From a virus (taxonomy: Duplodnaviria > Heunggongvirae > Uroviricota > Caudoviricetes), in the IMG/VR virus record IMGVR_UViG_2724679172_000007: a stretch of 51,134 bases of DNA. One strand, written 5' to 3'. The notes beneath the pieces are model-generated. The model saw only the letters and a program-made list of their open reading frames with translations. It made no database searches and was not told the DNA's origin. Shown here one piece after another: positions 1,148-37,229 of this stretch; position 1 is the stretch's first letter, and every line of letters begins with the position of its first letter. Position numbers and translations under genes: made by a program.

Positions 1148-1993
1148 TTAAACAGATTGAAGGTGGTAATCCAAAGGCCACGCATCGAGTGGGGTTACAT
1201 CAAGATGTAATTGCTTTTCTGCCGTTCGGTTCGGTATGGCATTAAGAGAAATATTGTCTGCCTGGCAGGAGGTATCACTACGGGATAGCATATCAGCCAT
1301 ACTCTCAGTAACATAAACACCTTCAATTACCGAAACATCCGTAGACAGGTAATTTAATATTTCTGCCACTTCAGGGAATACAGCACTAAGCCGAAACGAG
1401 ACGCCATCAAAAACAATATGCAATGGCAACAAAGGGGCTATTACTGTTTCGAAGTCAGATAACAATTTCTGCACAGCGGCTTCTTTATCCTGCTCTCCAT
1501 ATGAGCGATATAGCTTGTTCTGATCAACAACGACCAGCCCCCTTGATGTCAGGAAGAGCTCACCGAATTGAGCCTGTGCCGTAGGTATTTCTATTTCGGT
1601 CGCAAAATATGAACCATAGGGGTGTTTTTCTATATTTACAGGTGCATACAGCGGTTCCCAACTAACAGGAATACAACCGAATTCACGCCAGAATGTCTGC
1701 TCAATAGGCAAGATAGTACCTTTAAAGTGCACTTCATCTAAACGCTGCGCCAGAAGCATTGGCCTACGGGCATTATCTTTTTCAGTGATAACGAAAAAAC
1801 GCCCGTATTCAGCAATGCGGGCATCCATATCCTCACCGTCCATAGTGAAGAAGGATTTTCTGTTACTTATTCTTGTTAATATTGGTTCTACTGCCTCATT
1901 CCAGACATCCTGTAAAGCGTCTATAAATGCACTCCAGAGATGTGAATCCTGTTTTACTTTAGTTAATCGTTCCTTAAGCCAATTATCTTTCAT
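1148..1993 (-). CDS. Baseplate protein (gpI/P1 gp16-like by position)
   Basis: 281-aa ORF immediately downstream of the baseplate J-like gene on the same strand; W-J-I gene order is typical of contractile-tail baseplate wedge modules. Confidence 0.4.
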   Translation of the reverse strand: MKDNWLKERLTKVKQDSHLWSAFIDALQDVWNEAVEPILTRISNRKSFFTMDGEDMDARIAEYGRFFVITEKDNARRPMLLAQRLDEVHFKGTILPIEQTFWREFGCIPVSWEPLYAPVNIEKHPYGSYFATEIEIPTAQAQFGELFLTSRGLVVVDQNKLYRSYGEQDKEAAVQKLLSDFETVIAPLLPLHIVFDGVSFRLSAVFPEVAEILNYLSTDVSVIEGVYVTESMADMLSRSDTSCQADNISLNAIPNRTAEKQLHLDVTPLDAWPLDYHLQSV

Positions 1994-2003
1994 GCTAACC
2001 TCA

Positions 2004-3434
2004 TTACGGGTAAGAAATGCTGAACGTTGAAGATTTTACGTTAAGATAAATGAAGTCATTAAAGTAAACAGCATCTTTCATATTTTGTATTGTTATGTCG
2101 TAAGACAGAAACATATCCAGAGACTCTATTACTCGCCAAATATCCTTAACTTTTACCTGTGCATAACATTGCTGGGAATCATCATCACTCTGTAGTAATA
2201 AACTGAATGATGACGAATCACGGCCAAAATTATCTTCCAACGCTGCTTTAATAGCATTTTGAGCATCGTCTATCAGAACATTTTTACGTGCAATACCTAT
2301 AAAATTTATAGTAAATGGCTGTTCATTTGTATCTACATACTCGAACCGCTTGTTCAACTCATTTGGAACATTCTCTAGAGCTTTCAGTATTTCTGATTTT
2401 AGCTGAGACTGGCTTACACCCGGCTTATGTCCGCAAAAGAAAATTTTGTTGATGTTTCGAACGTCAAACCCAGTTATTTTCTCTTGTAACGCTTCGCCCC
2501 AAACGTTCAACCATGAAGTTCCATGAACAACATTCTGAATGAATTGGCGATAATCACCGCCCCATACCACTTGTTCATCGTATGCAACATAATACTGAGC
2601 ACGATTTCGAGTTTCTTCTGTAGTTTCCATACCACTACCACCGGTAATGATCGAATCAGTTTTAAACTCTAGTGACTCCACATATTGAGCGATATTTCCA
2701 GCCGGTTCTAACTTTTGTCCTTCAGCCAAAGTATAGTCGCCAAGGCTAGCCATAACATCGATTCGAACCTGACAGCCTGCTGGAGGCATCATACCCATAG
2801 AACCATCACCAAACTTGACTCCAAGTTGTTCTGTAGGTTTATATGCCAATGAATAGTGCTTACTCTTGTCTCTGGACATTCTAAATAATGGGTTATATGT
2901 CCATTTTTCTTCTACTCCATCTGTAATAACATAAACATCCAGGCTAGAGACTTCTTTTGTTAACTCTCTGGAAAGCAACAATGTCAGAAATAAAGTTTCC
3001 TTCTCAATATCAAACGTAATGCTAACAGCTTCATGCTGTTTAGTTTCTACGCCAGAAACAGTTCCTCCAGCAGGAATTACAACACTGTTAATAATTGCCA
3101 AAGGTGTTTGGTCATTGGCAAGCAATTCAGCCCCGGCTGGTAACGTAATATCCCGATCAGTTTTATTGGTTATAGACGTTGTTCCGTATGAAGCACTAAC
3201 AAATCGCCCTACGTAGCTACGGTCTTCAGCAACCGCTAAAATACTTGAGCGGCGCGTTGCCGTTGAAATAAGTCCCTCAGTGAGGCCGCGACTTGCAAAT
3301 GTACGGGCAATATAAATAAGCTGCGATCCGAATATAGCGTGCATCTGCACAAACTGACTATTTACAAATCGTGACCACCATGTATTTTCATTTAACTTGG
3401 CGTTAAATTTGTCCAGTAATTCTGTAATCGTCAC
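2004..3434 (-). CDS. Baseplate J-like protein
   Basis: 476-aa ORF whose start overlaps the stop of the upstream W-like gene (translational coupling); size and position match the baseplate J/gp6 family. Confidence 0.5.
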   Translation of the reverse strand: MTITELLDKFNAKLNENTWWSRFVNSQFVQMHAIFGSQLIYIARTFASRGLTEGLISTATRRSSILAVAEDRSYVGRFVSASYGTTSITNKTDRDITLPAGAELLANDQTPLAIINSVVIPAGGTVSGVETKQHEAVSITFDIEKETLFLTLLLSRELTKEVSSLDVYVITDGVEEKWTYNPLFRMSRDKSKHYSLAYKPTEQLGVKFGDGSMGMMPPAGCQVRIDVMASLGDYTLAEGQKLEPAGNIAQYVESLEFKTDSIITGGSGMETTEETRNRAQYYVAYDEQVVWGGDYRQFIQNVVHGTSWLNVWGEALQEKITGFDVRNINKIFFCGHKPGVSQSQLKSEILKALENVPNELNKRFEYVDTNEQPFTINFIGIARKNVLIDDAQNAIKAALEDNFGRDSSSFSLLLQSDDDSQQCYAQVKVKDIWRVIESLDMFLSYDITIQNMKDAVYFNDFIYLNVKSSTFSISYP

Positions 3435-29584: not shown

Positions 29585-30352
29585 TCACCCCATAGATATC
29601 GAGGTTTCGGTAATAATACGTTTTGCGTCCAACTCCCATGCTGTGATCACGTCTGTAATCACACTTATCGGCGCTTGTGTGGCATAAATACGCTCTTCTC
29701 CAATTGGTGCTGAAACATCCGTAAAGCCGACTTCTTTGGCATCCTGTATCGAGCAAATCAGCGGGACCGGGACACGAACAAGGTGAGTGGTTGCTTCAAA
29801 TTGTGTACCTGTCATCAGGCGAAGCCGTGCGCCCAGCGAATTACACATCAGACTCATGGTCGCTTTATCAGTTGCCATTAACGTAACGTCATACGTCAGA
29901 ATGGCCTGGGTGTATTCCAGTTCTGCTAAAGGCATTCCGGTATCCGGTTCGCAAAAACTGGCTACTTTTTTGCGGTCAATCTGCTGATCATCGTTGATAT
30001 AATTGATATCCATAGTGCGTGAGATATTGACCAGGGGGAGAGCATCCCGGTTAATGTTCTGGTTTTCAGGTTTTCTCCCTTGCCCGGCATTTGCGCGACG
30101 AACTGCTTTAAGAAACTCGATCGCATTGTCGAAACGGGCCACATAGACACGCTCTGCTGGTGGACGATTCAGGAATGACGCAAAGCGTTTTTCTTCCGGC
30201 GCGGGGGCCACCAGTAAGATATCAGAAAAGATATTGCTGATTAGCGTAGCAAACGCGTTATCCACGTTTTCAAAGCCCGTGGTCTGGAATTTTCCTGTGC
30301 GTGAGGTTTGCCATTCACCTGTTCGCGCCAGGAGGGTTTTATTTGAAGTCAT
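29585..30352 (-). CDS. Phage structural protein (hypothetical)
   Basis: 255-aa ORF with SD GGAGTGA; in an operon with the baseplate hub/spike genes. Confidence 0.3.
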   Translation of the reverse strand: MTSNKTLLARTGEWQTSRTGKFQTTGFENVDNAFATLISNIFSDILLVAPAPEEKRFASFLNRPPAERVYVARFDNAIEFLKAVRRANAGQGRKPENQNINRDALPLVNISRTMDINYINDDQQIDRKKVASFCEPDTGMPLAELEYTQAILTYDVTLMATDKATMSLMCNSLGARLRLMTGTQFEATTHLVRVPVPLICSIQDAKEVGFTDVSAPIGEERIYATQAPISVITDVITAWELDAKRIITETSISMG

Positions 30353-31140
30353 TCGATCACTCCGTTTTGAGTCGTATCAAAATTCCTGGCTGGTATGCAG
30401 TAGTAAAGCGAACCAACATGCTGTGTGCCGTAGCTAAAAATACGGTGCACGTACCACCAGCGGCGGGCTACGCCGTTTACCATCTCTTCATTCCATTCAA
30501 GAATTGAGCCGACGGGGACGTTATTTGCTGCAATACGCAGAATCAGAACATCATCGGTTAAGCCATCCTGCTCACCGTCTGCGTCAATCGCATGGAAAGA
30601 GTCACGCCCGTCCGGGTTATCCAGCACATAAACGATTTCAGGTTCCTGGTAAGTCAGTTCGCGTTGGTTGTTATCCAGTTCAGTGAATGACTCTTCTCCT
30701 GTTTCGTCGCTGACTACCCCATATGTGCCAACATCTGGTCGATATAAGAGAGCCTGAAACGCGTCTGGGCTGGATTCAATAATCAGCATCCAGTCTGTGC
30801 GGATTTGGTCGTTAAAGGCTTTATGCCCGTTATAGCGTGCTTTTAGCTGTGGAGTTGGTTCTCTGCCAGCCAGGGAAGGTGGAAGTATGGCTATATCTGA
30901 TTCGCCAGCATCTGGAGTAAGGCCACCGTTGCTATCAGCAAAATTATCATGGCTATCAGCTTTGGCGGCGGGTTGCTCTTCCAGAATGCTGAATGAATCC
31001 GAACTGGTATTGCCATGTTCCGGCGCGCCTCCTGCATTCGCTTCAATCGGCGCTGGCGTTTCTCTCTGCGTGCTGTCATGTTCTGACTCCTTACTTGCCA
31101 GGTTTGCATCGTCAGAAAACCATTCGTCAAAACGGCCCAT
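30349..31140 (-). CDS. Hypothetical protein (acidic, low-complexity N-terminal half)
   Basis: Start placed at the ATG at 31140 with a GAGG SD 8 nt upstream; the track's longer start lacks an SD. Confidence 0.35.
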   Translation of the reverse strand: MGRFDEWFSDDANLASKESEHDSTQRETPAPIEANAGGAPEHGNTSSDSFSILEEQPAAKADSHDNFADSNGGLTPDAGESDIAILPPSLAGREPTPQLKARYNGHKAFNDQIRTDWMLIIESSPDAFQALLYRPDVGTYGVVSDETGEESFTELDNNQRELTYQEPEIVYVLDNPDGRDSFHAIDADGEQDGLTDDVLILRIAANNVPVGSILEWNEEMVNGVARRWWYVHRIFSYGTQHVGSLYYCIPARNFDTTQNGVIE

Positions 31141-31210
31141 AAGCATCCTCAAAGGTCGATTTATCAGGTATCGAGGGTGCATTGTCTGGAGATTGTGATT
31201 TCAATTCATA

Positions 31211-31255
31211 TCCCAGCATGGGACTAAAGTGCTTTACATTGTCCCATATTGGGAC
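31211..31255. promoter_or_regulatory. Putative HigA operator: two copies of the inverted repeat TCCCA-N3-TGGGAC
   Basis: tcccagcatgggac (31211-31224) and gtcccatattgggac (31241-31255) just upstream of higB. Confidence 0.4.
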
Positions 31256-31285
31256 TACTATACTTTCAGAGAGAAGGAATCTGTG

Positions 31286-31588
31286 ATGAAAATAATTTCG
31301 GTAAAAACACTAAGGGATTTCTGGGCGAAGAATCCCGATGCAGAACAGCCATTAAAGGCATGGGTTGATGAAGCAACAAAGGCTGACTGGAAAAATCCGG
31401 CTGAGATCAAAGAACAGTACCGGACAGCCAGCATCCTTAAAAACAGGCGCGTGGTGTTCAATATTAAGGGAAATGATTACAGGTTAATTGTCGCAATTGC
31501 TTATCAGCGAGGATGGATGTTCGTTAAGTTTATTGGAACACATAAGGAATACGATGCCATTGAAGCGGATACAATAGAACTGGAGTAA
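31286..31588 (+). CDS. higB: Type II toxin HigB (RelE/ParE superfamily mRNA interferase)
   Basis: 100 aa; pattern KxLxDFW...KAW...WKNPAEIK...VFNIKGNDYRLI...FIGTHKEYD matches HigB toxins; toxin-first order with a downstream HTH antitoxin. Confidence 0.65.
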   Translation: MKIISVKTLRDFWAKNPDAEQPLKAWVDEATKADWKNPAEIKEQYRTASILKNRRVVFNIKGNDYRLIVAIAYQRGWMFVKFIGTHKEYDAIEADTIELE

Positions 31589-31591
31589 ATC

Positions 31592-31951
31592 ATGAACATT
31601 AAACCTATCCGTACAGAACAAGATTATGAGGCCGCACTGCGTGCGGTCGAACCGATGTTCGATAATGAACCGGAAATGAACACACCGGAAGGCGATTTCT
31701 TTGAGGTTATGTGTCTTCTCATTGAGGAGTACGAGAAAAAACATTACCCAATTGAGCCACCATCACCTATTGAGGCCATTAAATTCCGTATGGAACAGCA
31801 AGGACTGACCGTGAAGGATCTGGAACCGGCAATTGGTAAGTCAAACCGTGTTTACGAAGTGCTTAATGGGACACGAAATTTGACGTTACCTATGATTCGT
31901 CGTTTACATGCCCAGTTTGGTATTCCACTGGAAAGTCTGGTTGGTGTTTAA
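31592..31951 (+). CDS. higA: Antitoxin HigA (XRE-family HTH)
   Basis: 119 aa, 4 nt after higB; C-terminal HTH (LTVKDLEPAIGKSNRVYEVLNGTRNLTLPMIRRLHAQFGIP). Confidence 0.65.
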   Translation: MNIKPIRTEQDYEAALRAVEPMFDNEPEMNTPEGDFFEVMCLLIEEYEKKHYPIEPPSPIEAIKFRMEQQGLTVKDLEPAIGKSNRVYEVLNGTRNLTLPMIRRLHAQFGIPLESLVGV

Positions 31952-31956
31952 GTTTT

Positions 31957-31977
31957 GCGGTCTGGATGACCGCTTTT
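31957..31977 (+). terminator. Intrinsic terminator after higA
   Basis: gcggtc-tggat-gaccgc followed by TTTT. Confidence 0.45.
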
Positions 31978-32011
31978 ACATAAAATCAATGTTTAAATAT
32001 TTGGTAATTAT

Positions 32012-32746
32012 ATGAGCGCTGATTCATCAATAGAAAAGGAAAACTCCTCTACCCAAAATCTGTTAGAAGATGCTGTAAAAGATAAGTTGTTTAATAAGGT
32101 TTTTGCCTACATTTTTATTTCGTTTTTAATTTCTAATTGGCGAGACATATTTATATTACTGAAGTCAAAAGATGATGTTATGTATACATTATCTATAGTG
32201 TTTGTCGGGGAAAAGATCCCATTATTGGGGAATCTTTTTTTACCATCGTTCGTAGCTCATTTTGTTTTGCCTTTTATTTATGGTGTTGTGGCGTCAATAT
32301 TAGCGCCACTGTTAACCCTGTTAATTTCTTTGGTGACAAGCACATTATATGCTAAATTAAGAAAAATAGATGAAATTGCAAATAAAAAAGAACAAATAAG
32401 GACAATTAACAGTGATATTAAGAAAGCCATTAAGAAGCAGAGAGACGTTAAAAAGTATATTGAACAAGAAGAAGAAGAACTTGAATCATTAGAAAAACGG
32501 CTTAAAGAAATTAGGGAACAGATTGAATGTGTGGATAGCGATATCATTCATATTATTAAATTATATAGAGAGAAAGGTGAGAGCTTAAATTCGGTGGATG
32601 ATTTTTATGAATTTTTTACCGCCGTGAAAAACTCATCTTTTCGTTCGGGTGATACAAATGACAGGGAAACACTTGAGGAGCTTCTCTCAAAGCTTTCTGA
32701 TTCACTTGAAAAAATTAAATGCGATGCTAATAAAAAGGTGGGATAA
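32012..32746 (+). CDS. Low-GC membrane-anchored coiled-coil protein (unknown function; candidate exclusion/abortive-infection effector)
   Basis: 244 aa; conspicuously AT-rich codon usage compared with flanks; hydrophobic segments (FAYIFISFLISNW; LFLPSFVAHFVLPFIYGVVASILAPLLTLLISLVTSTLY) followed by a charged heptad-like region (KKEQIRTINSDIKKAIKKQRDVKKYIEQEEEELESLEKRLKEIREQIE). Confidence 0.5.
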   Translation: MSADSSIEKENSSTQNLLEDAVKDKLFNKVFAYIFISFLISNWRDIFILLKSKDDVMYTLSIVFVGEKIPLLGNLFLPSFVAHFVLPFIYGVVASILAPLLTLLISLVTSTLYAKLRKIDEIANKKEQIRTINSDIKKAIKKQRDVKKYIEQEEEELESLEKRLKEIREQIECVDSDIIHIIKLYREKGESLNSVDDFYEFFTAVKNSSFRSGDTNDRETLEELLSKLSDSLEKIKCDANKKVG

Positions 32747-32767
32747 ACCCACCTTTGTTAATTTTTT
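32734..32767. terminator. Bidirectional intrinsic terminator between convergent genes
   Basis: aaaggtggg-ataaa-cccaccttt hairpin followed by a T-run; overlaps the stop of the 32012..32746 gene. Confidence 0.5.
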
Positions 32768-33948
32768 ATGTACTCCATGAACATTTTTTCAGCTTGTGCT
32801 GGTGGTGTTCCAGCCATGACAAGCGCATCAATGAACGCCTGCTTCTTCAGTGCGAACTGATCGGCCAGGCGTTGCTGAAGCTCCTTGTTTTTCTGTTTCT
32901 CACGTTGCAACGCCGCTTCTTTTGCTGCCGCCCGTTTTTTCTGTGCGTCTGACAACTTTCTGACCTTGGTCAGTTGGTCACGTAGCTTGTCAATCTTGCC
33001 GTTGTCCTTTGCCAGTTTTGTGCTTAAAGCGGCCTGGCGCTTCTGATAGAGCCTCCATTCTCGCTTGGCAGCGTCAACGTTCGTTTTACTGCTACGATTG
33101 CGATTAAACTCCTTCTCGTCTTCTTTTGAGAAGTGTTTGGTTGTACGGCGGCGATCGTCACCAAATGCAATTTGCGTTGCAGCCTTTTGTAGCGCACGAG
33201 CAATACTCATTTGCCAACTGGCGGACTGTAACCGCGTCATTGAGTGGATCACGTGTTTACAGGCGACGCCTTGCAGCTTCGGGTTGCGAACTTTTGGATA
33301 GGCGTATTCTTTTGGCGGTGCCAGGGCAAAGTTACCCGCAGTGGCGATGTAACGATACCAGTATTGATGACGACCACAGTCACAATCGAAAGACACTCGC
33401 CCGGCGCACAGTGATTTAGTGATTTTGAGAGCTGATTTATCGTCTTCTGCGATATCATCAACCATCTGATCCCATTCTTCAAAGCGTATCCGGACGATAT
33501 GGTGCTGGTGGACGGATATATCCGATGCTTCTACGCGGATATTAATCACATTGTGGCGAAGAGATACGGGTGTAGCTCTTTTGATACCAGATCCGTCATC
33601 CACGGCGTTATTTGCACGCTTAATATCGATTGCCTGGCTGGATGCCACCAGCTGGGCGTATGTGATGCCAGCCGTCTTGCTGTCATATTTTTCGCGCGTT
33701 TTACTCCGGAGCTTTTCGAAACCTTTCAGGTCGTCTCGCGTGAAGAACGTGCCGCCTTTTTTCTTCCCTAACTTGAGAATATCTTCGGCGGATTTGTTCC
33801 TCAGTCTACCTGGCGTCAGCGTCCGGTGAGCTTGCCGGCGCTTACGGGTTTGTTCTTTCCTGATAAGGTCGAATAAACGCGTGAAGTCCTTAGAGGACAG
33901 GCCGTCAGTGATATAGCGCCCGTCCTGGTTTTTCAGGAAATCAGGCAT
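32758..33948 (-). CDS. SWIM-type zinc-finger-containing protein with basic coiled-coil C-terminus (function unknown)
   Basis: 396 aa; CxC-x(n)-CxH signature (FDCDCGRHQYW ... VACKHVIH); C-terminal Lys/Arg/Gln/Ala-rich region; good SD (GGAGATAG). Confidence 0.45.
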   Translation of the reverse strand: MPDFLKNQDGRYITDGLSSKDFTRLFDLIRKEQTRKRRQAHRTLTPGRLRNKSAEDILKLGKKKGGTFFTRDDLKGFEKLRSKTREKYDSKTAGITYAQLVASSQAIDIKRANNAVDDGSGIKRATPVSLRHNVINIRVEASDISVHQHHIVRIRFEEWDQMVDDIAEDDKSALKITKSLCAGRVSFDCDCGRHQYWYRYIATAGNFALAPPKEYAYPKVRNPKLQGVACKHVIHSMTRLQSASWQMSIARALQKAATQIAFGDDRRRTTKHFSKEDEKEFNRNRSSKTNVDAAKREWRLYQKRQAALSTKLAKDNGKIDKLRDQLTKVRKLSDAQKKRAAAKEAALQREKQKNKELQQRLADQFALKKQAFIDALVMAGTPPAQAEKMFMEYIKN

Positions 33949-34270
33949 TTTCTATCTCCGGTTCCGCGCTCGCGTAATCACGGATCTTATTCCTCAGCCA
34001 TGCCACATCAGGAAGAGTTAACGTGGTCCCGGCGGGCATTTCTTCCATTTCTGACTCATGGCCCACCAGCACCCGGAATACCCAGCGCAAATCTGCATTG
34101 CCATACGCCCTGTAGGCTGCAAGGTCTGAACGATATACTTCATCAATCTTTATCGTGTACTGGAAATTATCAGAGTGATACTCCGATACCCGCTTAATCA
34201 TTTCCTGGTGAAACAGCGCACGAAAAATATCGTCTTCAATGTACCTATCGTCGAGTCTGCTATAGCCCAT
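33941..34270 (-). CDS. Hypothetical protein (first gene of the two-gene operon with the SWIM protein)
   Basis: 109-aa ORF with SD GAGGGG; stop overlaps the start of the downstream gene. Confidence 0.45.
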   Translation of the reverse strand: MGYSRLDDRYIEDDIFRALFHQEMIKRVSEYHSDNFQYTIKIDEVYRSDLAAYRAYGNADLRWVFRVLVGHESEMEEMPAGTTLTLPDVAWLRNKIRDYASAEPEIENA

Positions 34271-34331
34271 AACAAAGCCCCTCAGTCATAACCTGGGGAA
34301 AACTGTATGCAGGGTGTGAAATGCGAGAAAG

Positions 34332-34357
34332 CAGCGTCACCAGGCCTGGTGACGCTG
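34332..34357. terminator. Perfect 26-bp palindrome (terminator/operator) downstream of the higBA-2 operon
   Basis: cagcgtcaccagg|cctggtgacgctg. Confidence 0.4.
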
Positions 34358-34362
34358 TGAAA

Positions 34363-34656
34363 TTATGCGTGGAAAAATAATGGACGGATGTTTGGGCGAG
34401 TGGTTTGCGAAGCAACCCAAAGCTCATACTGGGATTGCATACCGGTCCACATTTCGGCACTGGTTCCAAGAGCGGACTCCAGACGAAGTGCCATATCAGC
34501 AGATATACCTGCTTTTTCATTCAGAATTCGGGAAAGCGCCGTGCGAGTAATGCCTAATGCCGCAGCGGCGTCTGTGACTGACATGTCTCCCAAATATTCA
34601 CGAAGAACCGCGCCTGGATGCGCGGGATTATGCATACGACTCATAGTGTTCCTCAA
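34363..34656 (-). CDS. higA: Antitoxin HigA-2 family (HTH, antidote protein)
   Basis: 97 aa; MHNPAHPG...[37 protein letters not shown] matches the HigA antidote family pattern. Confidence 0.6.
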
Positions 34657-34931
34657 TGATAATCCTGATAGTCAACTAGAATTGCGTCTTCTCCTTCAAA
34701 TCGGAAGGTAAGTCGCCAGTTACCGTTTACCGATATTGCCCAGTGACCTTTAAGGTCCGCCCCCTTTAGAGGGTGCAATTCCCATCCAGGCGCAGACATA
34801 TCGTCCGGGCGTTTAGCTGTATTAAGCGCAGTCAATTGAATGCGTAGCTTAACCGCATGTTTGGCCTGAATGCCTGCGGTTGAACCTGTCTTGAAAAAGC
34901 GTTCAAGCCCTTTATGGCGAAATGACTTAAT
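34653..34931 (-). CDS. higB: Toxin HigB-2 (plasmid maintenance system killer protein family)
   Basis: [16 protein letters not shown]...[40 protein letters not shown] matches the killer-protein family; probable TTG start at 34931; stop overlaps the antitoxin start. Confidence 0.55.
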
Positions 34932-35136
34932 CAAAATAATTCCATTCGTGCGTGCAACCTGTGTATATACGCTACACGCAGAAAGAGTAAAATGCAAGCA
35001 CTATCCGTATAGACAGAGTTTTTTCGCCACCCTGGAATTTATTGACTGTCAACAAGTGACTTTCATTAATCTTAAGGCGTGGACCAGCTCGATAGTGAGC
35101 TGGGTGTTATTTACCGATCGAATGGATTCGAAAAGA

Positions 35137-35270
35137 TGAATATTTTTAATAAGCTGATTGATTTATTGAATAAATTCATTAGTGCTTCTTTAACTCAGCA
35201 GGTATCCACGTCAGTGTTTTTGTTACTCTTCTACCTGGTATTGAGGGAGTTAACAAAGCTACTAATGTGA
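35137..35270 (+). CDS. Small hydrophobic protein (44 aa), possible membrane peptide
   Basis: AT-rich small ORF MNIFNKLIDLLNKFISASLTQQVSTSVFLLLFYLVLRELTKLLM after a GC hairpin (ccagctc-gatagt-gagctgg); weak SD. Confidence 0.25.
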
Positions 35271-35924
35271 TCAAAGTATCACGGTATCTTCATCAACTTC
35301 TTTCCCAGCCAGTGACTTTGGCTGGGAGGTGCCTGCTTTAACTTTTTCATGCCCAATAATGGACAGGATCGAAGCGAGTATGCCTGTTTTTTGCTCTTTC
35401 TCGACTGTGCCGGTCATCTGCTCTACGTAATCTGCACTGGCAACGTTGTGGTATACGGTCGCGTAGCAACACAGGATCATCAGAATATGCTCCGGCCTGA
35501 TATCCTGCCAGTTCACCCTGTAGACTTCTTCTCCGTTACCGTTGTATTCGGTATCAACGATAGAGTCGGGGATTTCGAAAGCACCTTTGTTATTTTGCGG
35601 CAGGGATAATAGCTTCTGGAGTTTTAACTCTCTGTATCTTTCCATCCCGACGATGATTGCTGCTCTGCCATCGGCATGACGGGTCTTGAGAGTCACCTGG
35701 CTTGCTCCGGTGCCAGCGGAGATCGTTGGCGTAATTTCGTCTACCAGTACCTTAAATTTGCTTTTCCGCAGGGCTGCTATAGCTGGAGGAATTTTTTGCT
35801 TTTGCTCCAATGCTGACGCGGGAAGGGGTTTTACTTCGTTAATAATGAGAGCACCGTCTTTCAGTATTGCAGTGAGCATTTGAGGCTTGCTGGTGGTCAG
35901 GCTGAATATTGCGATCTTTTCCAT
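35271..35924 (-). CDS. Hypothetical protein
   Basis: 217 aa; start set at the ATG at 35922-35924, preceded by a strong SD (GGAGGAAGG); the longer upstream start in the track lacks an SD. Confidence 0.45.
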   Translation of the reverse strand: MEKIAIFSLTTSKPQMLTAILKDGALIINEVKPLPASALEQKQKIPPAIAALRKSKFKVLVDEITPTISAGTGASQVTLKTRHADGRAAIIVGMERYRELKLQKLLSLPQNNKGAFEIPDSIVDTEYNGNGEEVYRVNWQDIRPEHILMILCCYATVYHNVASADYVEQMTGTVEKEQKTGILASILSIIGHEKVKAGTSQPKSLAGKEVDEDTVIL

Positions 35925-36207
35925 TGTCCTTCCTCCACGGATGACGGATACAAAAAAAGGCCGCACATGGCGGCCTGCTTTGGCGTTATGACTCCCTACC
36001 GCGCTTCGGCTGAAAGTTAATCGTCAAAAGAACCTTCAACGGGAGCCGTTAGCGCGATGGATTATGTGCAGTTTGTGATTTCCAAAATAGTGTCAACCAC
36101 TTTTTGTGGATTTTATTTTTTGACCGAAATTTGGCCTAAATCATGTTGATGTAGTTGATTGTTTTTGTAACATAAAACTTCATTTTGTTTACATGAAGGA
36201 CGGTGTA

Positions 36208-36816
36208 GTGAAGTTAAGGGTTTTAGGGACCGCGCTCGCGGCTATGTTGGGATGCGTATCTGTTAATACAGCCAATGCAACTGCGTTACCTGCACAATTC
36301 AGGGCAGGGCAGCAGGTTATGAATAACGCTGGTGGGGATCATTCACAAGCGGCAATTATGGACTTTTGCAAGAGAGAGGGCATTCCATTACGGCCTGTTG
36401 GAACTCAGTTTATTGGTAAAACTGACTTTTGCGTTTTTGCATATACAGCATATCTGACGGACAAAGCTATAACAAAAACAGGTTATTCAACCAAAGATAC
36501 TCTTTCCAGATTAAGTCAGGGATGGCAGCAATTCGAAGTGTATCGCCAGCAAGGATTAGGTGAGTTATTACAACCACTTTTTATGCTTGCGCTGGTGCCC
36601 GAGGGGCAGCAATTTTTGGTTAAAAAGGGAATGCTTCGCCAAAGTGATATTGCCGGGTTCGATAGCATGATGGCTTATGAGCGCAAACTAACCGAGCAGC
36701 GAAATAAAAAACCATCTGCTTCATGTGTGCAAAGTAAAACAGCAGAATACAGTGCAGTAGCCGGGCCTTTAGCCAAACAAATGGCAGAGCAATGGTGTAA
36801 AAAATACGGGCAATAA
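36208..36816 (+). CDS. Putative lipoprotein (secreted, unknown function)
   Basis: Signal peptide with lipobox (KLRVLGTALAAMLGC); probable GTG start 7 nt after a GAAGGA SD. Confidence 0.4.
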   Translation: MKLRVLGTALAAMLGCVSVNTANATALPAQFRAGQQVMNNAGGDHSQAAIMDFCKREGIPLRPVGTQFIGKTDFCVFAYTAYLTDKAITKTGYSTKDTLSRLSQGWQQFEVYRQQGLGELLQPLFMLALVPEGQQFLVKKGMLRQSDIAGFDSMMAYERKLTEQRNKKPSASCVQSKTAEYSAVAGPLAKQMAEQWCKKYGQ

Positions 36817-36836
36817 GTTACGCAGCGGAGGCAGAA

Positions 36837-37229
36837 TTGAAAAGATTGGCTATTGCTTTACTGGCGTCTTTCCCTTTGATCGCGAGCGCCGGAAATTTAC
36901 AAGTTAAGTGCGGTCGGTTTGATATAAAAATCTATCCGGATGCCATATTTCTGAATGGGAATAAGGTTGATAACGCACACCGAAAAACTGAATCTGACGT
37001 AATGAGCTATGTGTTCCAGGAGTATGCGGAGATGGGGGGAACTTACACGCTGTACTCGCTGGATGTTCCTTCTCGCGGTGATATGACATTATCCCATCAA
37101 TGGCAGAACGCCGATGGCGAAGCTCTGCGCGAGGTTAAAACAGAAAAATGTGGCACTTTCCATTCTTTTAAAGGGAAAGCGCCAAATGTTAAATCTGTGC
37201 TTGAAAAACAGCGCGCAGGTGAGCTTTAA
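36837..37229 (+). CDS. Secreted protein (signal peptide, unknown function)
   Basis: N-terminal signal peptide MKRLAIALLASFPLIASA; 130 aa; in an operon with the upstream lipoprotein gene. Confidence 0.45.
   Translation: MKRLAIALLASFPLIASAGNLQVKCGRFDIKIYPDAIFLNGNKVDNAHRKTESDVMSYVFQEYAEMGGTYTLYSLDVPSRGDMTLSHQWQNADGEALREVKTEKCGTFHSFKGKAPNVKSVLEKQRAGEL

Follow-up and report, generated by a model that had tools for sequence, protein, structure and literature searches.

Two core virion genes with an independent accessory slot on either side, rather than one toxin-antitoxin-bracketed island, probably make up a variable segment of a D6-like phage-plasmid

INTRODUCTION

Phage D6 is a P1-family plasmid prophage. 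In its orf70-orf75 region and in the D6-like plasmid prophages pYU39_89 and pF374-2, the genes are ordered gene 7, a toxin-antitoxin (TA) module, a helix-turn-helix (HTH) gene, a membrane gene, gene 25, gene 26, and mat. The same backbone is found in a 51,134-nucleotide stretch of viral DNA (Caudoviricetes; IMG/VR record IMGVR_UViG_2724679172_000007), hereafter the window, of which we analyze here the segment from position 31211 to position 34997. An earlier note on this segment, made from the letters alone, had read it as a single accessory island bracketed by two different HigBA-type TA systems. We consider it probable that the segment instead combines two core genes for virion morphogenesis (the gene 26 and gene 25 homologues of P1) with two independent accessory slots on their flanks that work along the lines set out in the Discussion.

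In P1, genes 26, 25, 7, 24, 6, and 5 form a single late operon with promoter LP26 and operator O26, and their homologues in the window keep the same order and orientation. The closest described TA systems are HigB-HigA of Proteus vulgaris Rts1 (PDB 4MCT, 4MCX, and 4YPB) and HigB-HigA of Escherichia coli K-12 (YgjN/YgjM; PDB 5IFG, 5YCL, and 6KML). A further relative is PD-lambda-2, in which an HTH-peptidase fusion is itself the toxic component and a P4-antitoxin-like third gene is required for defense (PMC9519451). In D6-like plasmids, phd-doc and higA-higB have been described as post-segregational killing systems (PMC6799933).

RESULTS

Two core virion genes lie between the TA pairs

Every open reading frame (ORF) listed in the earlier note was found in the sequence. 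With a query of approximately 10 kb around the segment, phage D6 was matched at 96.7% identity over 71% of the query, along with 306 plasmid records, the best full-length ones being non-mobilizable plasmids of approximately 90 kb from E. coli, Salmonella, and Shigella. The nearest record, E. coli pF374-2 (NZ_OY754373.1), was 99.3% identical across 30300 to 36200 and left 11% of the query uncovered. Since D6 is a P1-family plasmid prophage, these matches identify the element as a D6-like phage-plasmid of E. coli. Synteny was examined in 24 D6-like loci assembled from PLSDB and IMG/VR, while frequencies among D6-like plasmids refer to approximately 118 PLSDB records, in each of which the gene 25/26 DNA is covered to 80% or more. 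The sequence comparisons show directly which genes are present, how they are ordered, how their alleles are distributed, and that operators and active-site residues are conserved. The conserved genes of the region are the following.

30349-31140, minus strand: homologue of gene 7 (tail protein), PHROG 1906; left border of slot A
32758-33948, minus strand: homologue of gene 25 (P1 "tail stability"), 396 amino acids; PHROG 1722, P1 gp25, D6 orf74
33941-34270, minus strand: homologue of gene 26 (P1 baseplate gene), 109 amino acids; PHROG 1269, D6 orf75 ("similar to P1 gene 26")
35271-35924, minus strand: homologue of mat (maturation control), PHROG 1837, D6 orf78 ("similar to P1 gene mat"); right border of slot B

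All 24 D6-like loci share the order gene 7, TA module, membrane gene (here called mem), gene 25, gene 26, and mat. The 396-amino-acid and 109-amino-acid ORFs share an 8-bp overlap and face mem convergently; to their left, on the same strand, lie homologues of genes 7, 24, 6, and 5, with gene 7 (PHROG 1906 tail family, E = 1e-115; D6 orf69, "similar to P1 gene 7"; RefSeq start at 31140) as the first gene of the downstream late unit 7-24-6-5. Both ORFs belong to PHROG tail families, phrog_1269 for the 109-amino-acid protein (E = 2e-36) and phrog_1722 for the 396-amino-acid protein (E = 1e-196). The latter aligned with P1 gp25 at 57% identity over 84% of the query and at 56% over 90%, and gp25 homologues were present in 21 P1-like phage records, including P1, P7, SJ46, and RCS47; the former shares 41% identity with P1 gp26. 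The contiguous 26-25-7-24-6-5 arrangement of P1 recurs in Cronobacter phage JK004, and both phages differ from the window in that genes 25 and 7 are only 3 bp apart and nothing is inserted between them.

The two genes hardly vary among relatives: amino acid identity is 98 to 100% in E. coli D6-like elements, where the gene 26 homologue is 100% identical, and 77 to 83% in an Enterobacter relative. Both are syntenic in 24 of 24 D6-like loci, and 118 PLSDB records hold at least 80% of their DNA. The earlier note had taken this two-gene operon for cargo and had set the whole block between tail/baseplate genes and the rest of the element; two genes of the block turn out to be tail/baseplate-operon genes themselves, and it is this part that is conserved and syntenic in the relatives, the outcome that the note itself had named as speaking against cargo. 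Altogether, the results indicate that the 109-amino-acid and 396-amino-acid genes are core, not cargo.

The 396-amino-acid protein had also been described as a SWIM zinc-finger protein. The underlying motif is real, in that C189-x-C191...C230-x-H232, with a spacer of 38 residues, is invariant across the P1, Enterobacter, Xanthomonas-phage, and Acinetobacter-phage homologues; at the family level, Pfam gave no match to SWIM (PF04434) even at E ≤ 10. The protein also has a C-terminal coiled coil.

Distant gp25 homologues were located upstream of a major capsid or head-vertex gene in Xanthomonas phage Rb1 (positions 2300-3379 of the extracted locus L011), where the homologue is annotated "MvaT," and in Acinetobacter phage ABMM1 (positions 1942-3352 of locus L012), where a gp26-like ORF of 92 amino acids precedes the gp25 homologue and the pair comes after terminase and another gene, 1.5 kb long. 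These positions suggest that genes 25 and 26, the "tail stability" genes of P1, may be members of a head-proximal module.

Slot A holds a TA module and a membrane gene in all 24 loci, and its toxin has probably been exchanged

Slot A spans 31202 to 32757 on the plus strand, between genes 7 and 25, and is antisense to the late genes. Its features are listed below.

31211-31254, plus strand: palindromic operators TCCCAN3TGGGA, candidates for HigA1/HigBA1 autoregulation, from a pattern scan and from relatives
31233-31261, plus strand: sigma-70-like predicted higBA1 promoter, -35 TTTACA, 17-nucleotide spacer, -10 TACTAT, from a consensus scan only
31286-31588, plus strand: higB1, RelE-fold HigB toxin of the E. 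coli K-12 type, PF09907
31592-31951, plus strand: higA1, two-domain antitoxin whose C-terminal domain is an XRE helix-turn-helix, HTH_3, PHROG 1373
31957-31973, plus strand: weak hairpin GCGGTC-TGGAT-GACCGC followed by TTTTACAT, between higA1 and mem, a possible attenuator
32012-32746, plus strand: mem, low-GC gene for a membrane-anchored coiled-coil protein of 244 amino acids, PHROG 8191
32734-32756, no strand assigned: GC-rich hairpin AAAGGTGGG-ATAAA-CCCACCTTT between the convergent mem and gene 25, a likely bidirectional terminator

HigB1 matched the Pfam HigB_toxin family PF09907 over profile positions 1 to 74 of 74 (E = 3e-34) and the HigB of PDB 5YCL/5IFG (E = 1e-7). Its start is likely the ATG at 31286, which has an AAGGA ribosome-binding site, because the alternative GTG at 31229 would precede the predicted promoter. 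In HigA1, HTH_3 covers residues 63 to 115, and the E. coli HigA in PDB was matched at E = 3e-8. The toxin gene comes first, higB1 ending at 31588 and higA1 starting at 31592. These matches identify HigB1/HigA1 as a genuine HigBA pair of the E. coli K-12 type, with the same families as YgjN/YgjM, namely, PF09907 and a two-domain antitoxin with a C-terminal HTH, although the relationship is distant (E of approximately 1e-7), HigA1 has 119 amino acids versus 138 in K-12, and the window pair has TCCCAN3TGGGA operators.

Palindromic operator repeats had been noted at higBA1 before, and they withstood a count: TCCCAN3TGGGA occurs twice in the window versus 0.04 expected, none of 100 shuffles reached two, and among the relatives the pattern is confined to loci with higB1. 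The two copies, TCCCAGCATGGGA (31211-31223) and TCCCATATTGGGA (31242-31254), are 31 bp apart and straddle the predicted promoter, the second one sitting between the -35 and -10 hexamers. From pattern and position, a role as the operator pair for higBA1 autoregulation is credible.

Among the 24 D6-like loci, including distant Enterobacter elements, slot A is filled in every one, first by a TA module and then by a low-GC gene of the membrane/coiled-coil type; the insert was not found in the P1-like phages checked, P1 and JK004. As a presence/absence hotspot slot A therefore fails, since it is empty in none of the 24 loci and only its alleles change. Pairwise BLAST delineated one such change with sharp breakpoints: in D6 and most relatives, 31202 to 31584, comprising the operators and higB1, is replaced by an 861-bp RelE/ParE-HigA cassette, downstream of which higA1 resumes at 31585. 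Full higBA1 was present in 21 PLSDB records (approximately 19%) and the RelE/ParE-HigA cassette in 91 (approximately 81%; 87 of them at ≥99% identity), so that the two together account for 112 of the approximately 118 D6-like records.

The higA1 copy left downstream of the alternative cassette, an orphan, has decayed to different degrees. It is full length with one to three substitutions in D6 and five other loci, is reduced to 66 amino acids by a deletion in the commonest type (a 189-bp remnant in 89 PLSDB records), and ends after 68 amino acids at a nonsense codon in locus L014, so that HigA1 is without its DNA-binding domain in most relatives. The orphans homologous to 31592-31951 lie at 5072-5431 in L001, 4572-4769 in L007, and 5581-5940 in L014. 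The GCGGTC-TGGAT-GACCGC hairpin is kept in loci with full higA1. The pattern of orphan genes speaks for HigBA1 as the earlier occupant, with its toxin replaced in situ.

Fragments of the region also turned up elsewhere. More than 100 large Klebsiella plasmids contain a gene 25 fragment of approximately 200 bp, many of them together with a mem fragment, and one K. pneumoniae IncFIB/IncHI1B plasmid (L009, 4174-5384) carries a remnant flanked by insertion sequences (IS), consisting of a PF09907-type HigB, a 139-amino-acid HTH gene, and a truncated mem; these fragments look like relics of D6-like phage-plasmids. In JK004 (L031, 2028-2755), a pair of genes for 103 and 139 amino acids lies approximately 1.3 kb upstream of gene 26. 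In size the two equal the Enterobacter-type HigB/HTH pair, which suggests that other lineages, too, may have TA modules close to the promoter region of gene 26.

Slot B is a presence/absence site that varies independently of slot A

The second TA pair lies between gene 26 and mat, with the following features.

34332-34357, no strand assigned: perfect 13+13 palindrome CAGCGTCACCAGG/CCTGGTGACGCTG at the gene 26-proximal edge of the higBA2 cassette
34363-34644, minus strand: higA2, HigA-family antitoxin, TIGR02607, HTH_3, PDB HigA-type
34653-34934, minus strand: higB2, HigB toxin of the Proteus vulgaris/Rts1 type, PF05015, PDB 4MCT
34956-35021, no strand assigned: 16-nucleotide inverted repeat upstream of higB2, a possible operator

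The right end at 34997 in the earlier note is that of the longest ORF with a TTG start; the coordinates above are those given for both genes by RefSeq relatives and by alignment to Pfam. HigB2 matched PF05015 (E = 1e-20) and, in an end-to-end alignment, the HigB of PDB 4MCT (E = 4e-23), while HigA2 scored 98.6 bits against TIGR02607 (cutoff, 47.7) and matched HTH_3 (E = 4e-10) and PDB HigA-type antitoxins (E = 1e-13). Aligned to 4MCT_B, HigB2 keeps His54, Arg73, Asp90, Tyr91, and His92, residues important for mRNA cleavage by HigB (PMC5027501). The pair thus resembles Rts1 HigBA in these five residues, in its toxin-first order, and in its HTH antitoxin of the HigA family, and differs in residing on a phage-plasmid as an optional cassette of approximately 0.7 kb. 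The two HigBA-type pairs recognized in the earlier note are accordingly both present, as PF09907 with HTH_3 and as PF05015 with TIGR02607.

In most relatives, slot B is a 328-bp spacer between gene 26 and mat that contains a hairpin, an exact P1-type late-promoter box, and a hydrophobic ORF of 44 amino acids. In the window, approximately 712 bp (34331-35042) with higA2 and higB2 takes the place of the approximately 43-bp hairpin; taken more widely, an 878-bp segment (34331-35208) replaces 186 to 206 bp of the relatives, and the small-ORF leader adjoining the cassette is a diverged allele, approximately 80% identical. The palindrome at 34332-34357 is a probable terminator that would shield gene 26 from TA transcription. 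The IMG/VR relative L022 has an IS element in slot B instead. Slot B is a true presence/absence site.

higBA2 was detected in 25 records, 17 of them non-mobilizable D6-like plasmids (approximately 14% of the relatives) and 8 conjugative plasmids; seven of these eight are Escherichia plasmids of 215 to 242 kb, with nearly the whole cassette at approximately 90% identity. Its occurrence in both classes indicates that the cassette moves between plasmid types. Among D6-like elements it is present irrespective of the slot A allele. D6 differs from the window at both slots, having a RelE/ParE-HigA pair and then orphan higA1, a mem allele of 41% identity, and an empty slot B, and the combination seen in the window (HigBA1, this mem allele, and higBA2) was confirmed in PLSDB only for pF374-2.

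These distributions bear directly on the single island of the earlier note, in which mem and the 109-amino-acid and 396-amino-acid genes would be cargo bracketed, and stabilized or co-regulated, by the two TA systems. Two different HigBA pairs do flank the intervening genes, and a TA module is always directly upstream of mem on the same strand, which is compatible with co-regulation. TA cassettes in other systems protect neighboring DNA from deletion. However, the supposed cargo includes the core, syntenic, 98 to 100% conserved homologues of P1 26 and 25, the two TA pairs vary independently (higBA2 accompanies any slot A allele), and each slot has its own sharp breakpoints, so that we regard one island as highly improbable. 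Because genes 26 and 25 are core and the slots have separate breakpoints, the segment is better described as two insertion slots than as one TA-bracketed island. The related expectation of a variable slot was right for slot B, which comes and goes, and for slot A in that its alleles swap; it was wrong in that slot A is never empty in the 24 loci and genes 25 and 26 are constant.

The membrane gene of slot A evolves rapidly and is a probable prophage moron

The low-GC membrane gene pointed out in the earlier note is, like the two TA pairs, accessory relative to P1 and stands apart in composition, with a guanine-plus-cytosine (GC) fraction of 0.32 and a third-codon-position value (GC3) of 0.29, versus 0.45 to 0.50 in the neighboring genes. 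Its product has a hydrophobic N-terminal domain and a long helix. A 100% DNA-level match was found in one record only, pF374-2; at the protein level, 154 of 155 plasmid matches fell below 60% identity. In most loci the mem product is 33 to 50% identical to the window allele, with flanking genes at 98 to 100%, and the nearest different allele is that of L014, at 83%. Within the protein, the transmembrane domain (residues 23 to 113) has a mean pairwise identity of 70%, versus 35 to 42% for the coiled-coil and C-terminal parts. Compared with L014, the ratio of nonsynonymous to synonymous substitution rates (dN/dS) was 0.10 for the transmembrane domain and 0.75 for residues 114 to 244, versus 0.09 for gene 25 and 0.17 for gene 7, and mem dS was several-fold above that of the flanks. 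This pattern points to import of alleles by recombination, together with selection on the C-terminal part that is either relaxed or diversifying.

When 1.8 billion representatives were searched with a profile, 70 mem relatives emerged; none was found in GTDB representative genomes. Homologues sit as single genes in antisense orientation between the gpV baseplate spike and gpS-side genes of P2-like prophages and, likewise, in the replication-nin region of a lambdoid prophage, and in another P1-like lineage a homologue stands directly behind a TacA/GNAT-toxin pair, between bplB and pmgC-tub-pmgB-sit. From these contexts, the family acts as a prophage moron, typically antisense inside structural clusters; its adjacency to a TA module recurs in phage-plasmids and is not obligatory.

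Structure prediction gave a predicted local distance difference test (pLDDT) score of 64 with 8 sequences, and of 75 with a predicted template modeling score (pTM) of 0.38 with 30 sequences; Foldseek comparison of the model with viral structures returned nothing below E = 0.69. PADLOC matches of mem to LmuB, JetC, and PbeC, at E of 1e-6 or weaker and restricted to the helical region, were rejected as coiled-coil noise.

The position of mem inside a tail-gene cluster, together with a weak, sub-threshold Pfam similarity to DUF2570 and TraS-like membrane proteins, could point to a phage late function, such as a holin- or spanin-like accessory of lysis or morphogenesis, rather than to a lysogenic moron. 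This can hardly be right: the late genes around mem all run on the other strand and no late-box motif precedes it, it is AT-rich (GC of 0.32) and hypervariable next to nearly invariant structural neighbors, and P1 and JK004, which make functional virions, do not have it.

PD-lambda-2, an abortive-infection system by experiment (PMC9519451), offers another model, in which HigB1, HigA1, and mem would form a tripartite anti-phage system with mem as effector or sensor and the TA pair as switch. In its favor, HigB1 matched the PADLOC model PD-Lambda-2_A (PDLC03979) almost end to end (E = 1e-41, positions 1 to 96 of 97) and HigA1 matched PD-Lambda-2_B (E = 7e-43), though only at positions 1 to 119 of its 402-position profile, that is, the N-terminal HTH part. 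The order of TA and then mem holds in 24 of 24 D6-like loci with three TA types, and it recurs with the TacA/GNAT TA at a different genomic site in the other P1-like lineage. Yet HigA1, with its 119 amino acids, has no ImmA/IrrE peptidase domain, the toxic part of PD-lambda-2B; PD-Lambda-2_C, the P4-antitoxin-like third component, was matched by none of the 10 proteins scanned around the locus, where the third gene is an unrelated membrane protein. With both the HTH-peptidase fusion and the third gene absent, the locus is not a PD-lambda-2 system. The earlier note had advised looking for defense-system models over the cargo genes; PADLOC gave no complete system and only these partial matches. 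Moreover, mem is retained where an unrelated TA has taken the place of the toxin, its alleles combine with the TA types independently in the 24 D6-like loci, the DNA-binding domain of HigA1 is lost in most relatives, and P2-like and lambdoid prophages have mem homologues with no TA beside them. A tripartite system is distinctly unlikely on this evidence, and we return to mem as a moron.

Late units on either side of slot A appear to carry promoter-like boxes of their own

A matrix built from five annotated P1 late promoters was scanned over the window, and a second motif was retained on the basis of a direct pattern scan with shuffles. The boxes concerned are as follows.

31181-31201, minus strand: candidate D6-type late-promoter box AAATCACAA-N6-GACAAT upstream of gene 7
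34302-34322, minus strand: variant late-promoter-like box ATTTCACAC-N6-TACAGT upstream of gene 26
35054-35072, plus strand: exact P1-type late-promoter box AAGTGACTT-tcat-TAATCT, outside the TA cassette proper, followed by a hairpin at 35084-35103
35136-35270, plus strand: hydrophobic ORF of 44 amino acids, allele of D6 orf77, convergent with mat, its stop abutting the mat stop

The P1-type box is the same as that of P1 LP23 and is the sole zero-mismatch site in the 51-kb window. It is kept in all D6-like relatives, those with an empty slot B included, and precedes the 44-amino-acid ORF next to mat, the product of which is possibly a small late membrane peptide. That this site stands alone argues that the D6-like late genes in the window do not use the P1 box. 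In its place we find AAAT[CA]ACAA-N6-NANNNT, which has five matches in the window versus a shuffle mean of 0.075, all on the minus strand (36081, 31201, 20729, 17958, and 1112). Each precedes mat or a late-type operon; besides mat and gene 7, the set covers the capsid gene, a PAAR-like operon, and the tail-fiber region. The box was also written as A[AT][AT]TCACA[AC]-N6-nAnnnT. Variant boxes occupy the homologous gene 7 site in D6 and in Enterobacter pJBIWA008_2, the latter having ATTTCACAA-N6-CAAAAT there and ATTTCACAA-N6-AATACT at the mat site. The box upstream of gene 26 lies within DNA that is conserved in all relatives (to 34330). The motif, which differs from the P1 box, may thus represent a D6-type late promoter.

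Beyond mat on its right side, two plus-strand ORFs of 207 and 130 amino acids with signal-peptide-like N termini (36193-37229) form a region that is simB-like in the D6 annotation, differs among close relatives, and is part of the 11% not covered by pF374-2; neither ORF had a family match in PADLOC or NCBIfam.

DISCUSSION

The reading we prefer, two core virion genes with an accessory slot on each side, may be put in the form of a working mechanism. The slot A insert would split a late operon that is single in P1 (26-25-7-24-6-5), and 26-25 and 7-24-6-5 would each have a late-promoter-like box of their own, which would account for the operon tolerating the insert. The HigB1/HigA1 operon would be autoregulated through two palindromic operators over its promoter. 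Both HigB proteins would be ribosome-dependent mRNA endonucleases restrained by labile HigA, and hence the two pairs would serve as post-segregational-killing (addiction) modules for a low-copy plasmid prophage; both may be abortive-infection triggers too. mem would be a lysogen-expressed moron, probably read from or through the TA promoter, and its fast-evolving C-terminal domain suggests a role in exclusion or defense. The hairpin at 32734-32756 would end both convergent units, mem and gene 25. The toxicity of the modules, their addiction or defense function, the co-transcription and function of mem, and the late-promoter assignment are what we infer in this scheme.

Several observations weigh against it. 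Co-transcription of mem with the TA genes is uncertain, as there is a hairpin behind higA1 and, in the common RelE/ParE-type loci, a strong one behind the antitoxin gene. Promoter-like matches in the region number 7, below the shuffle mean of 9.8, and the promoter and terminator assignments are based on consensus matches. The P1 late-promoter matrix, scanned over the window, gave no match upstream of genes 26 or 7, and the alternative late box was derived here from five or six sites and two footprints and is not an established element. Finally, mem gave no informative match to Pfam or NCBIfam families, to PADLOC models, or, by Foldseek, to viral structures.

The orphan antitoxin and mem invite a bolder interpretation. 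An orphan HigA1 fragment could be a candidate anti-addiction factor against rival HigB1-bearing D6-like plasmids. The PHROG 8191 mem may be a widespread prophage exclusion or abortive-infection determinant, whose hypervariable cytoplasmic domain tracks the targeted phages. It would be functionally coupled to the upstream type II TA, of which four families were seen, for instance by being expressed from the TA promoter once the antitoxin is lost. Taken jointly, retention of the N-terminal 66 to 68 amino acids of HigA1 for such a purpose and an exclusion or abortive-infection role of mem coupled to the TA make a tentative proposal that we think is rather unlikely to hold in full.

Two slots on either side of two core virion genes are ordinary for elements of this type, and both HigBA modules are ordinary new members of known families. 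The main value of the analysis is corrective: two core virion genes had been taken for cargo, their operon being split by an antisense accessory module, and automated "island" calls in phage-plasmids can go wrong in the same way. Beyond this, the locus is a clean natural case of in situ TA replacement, with sharp breakpoints and an orphan antitoxin left behind. It also brings to light the mem family, a fast-evolving and recurrent antisense moron in late-gene clusters of P1-like, P2-like, and lambdoid prophages, and a reasonable candidate for superinfection exclusion or defense.

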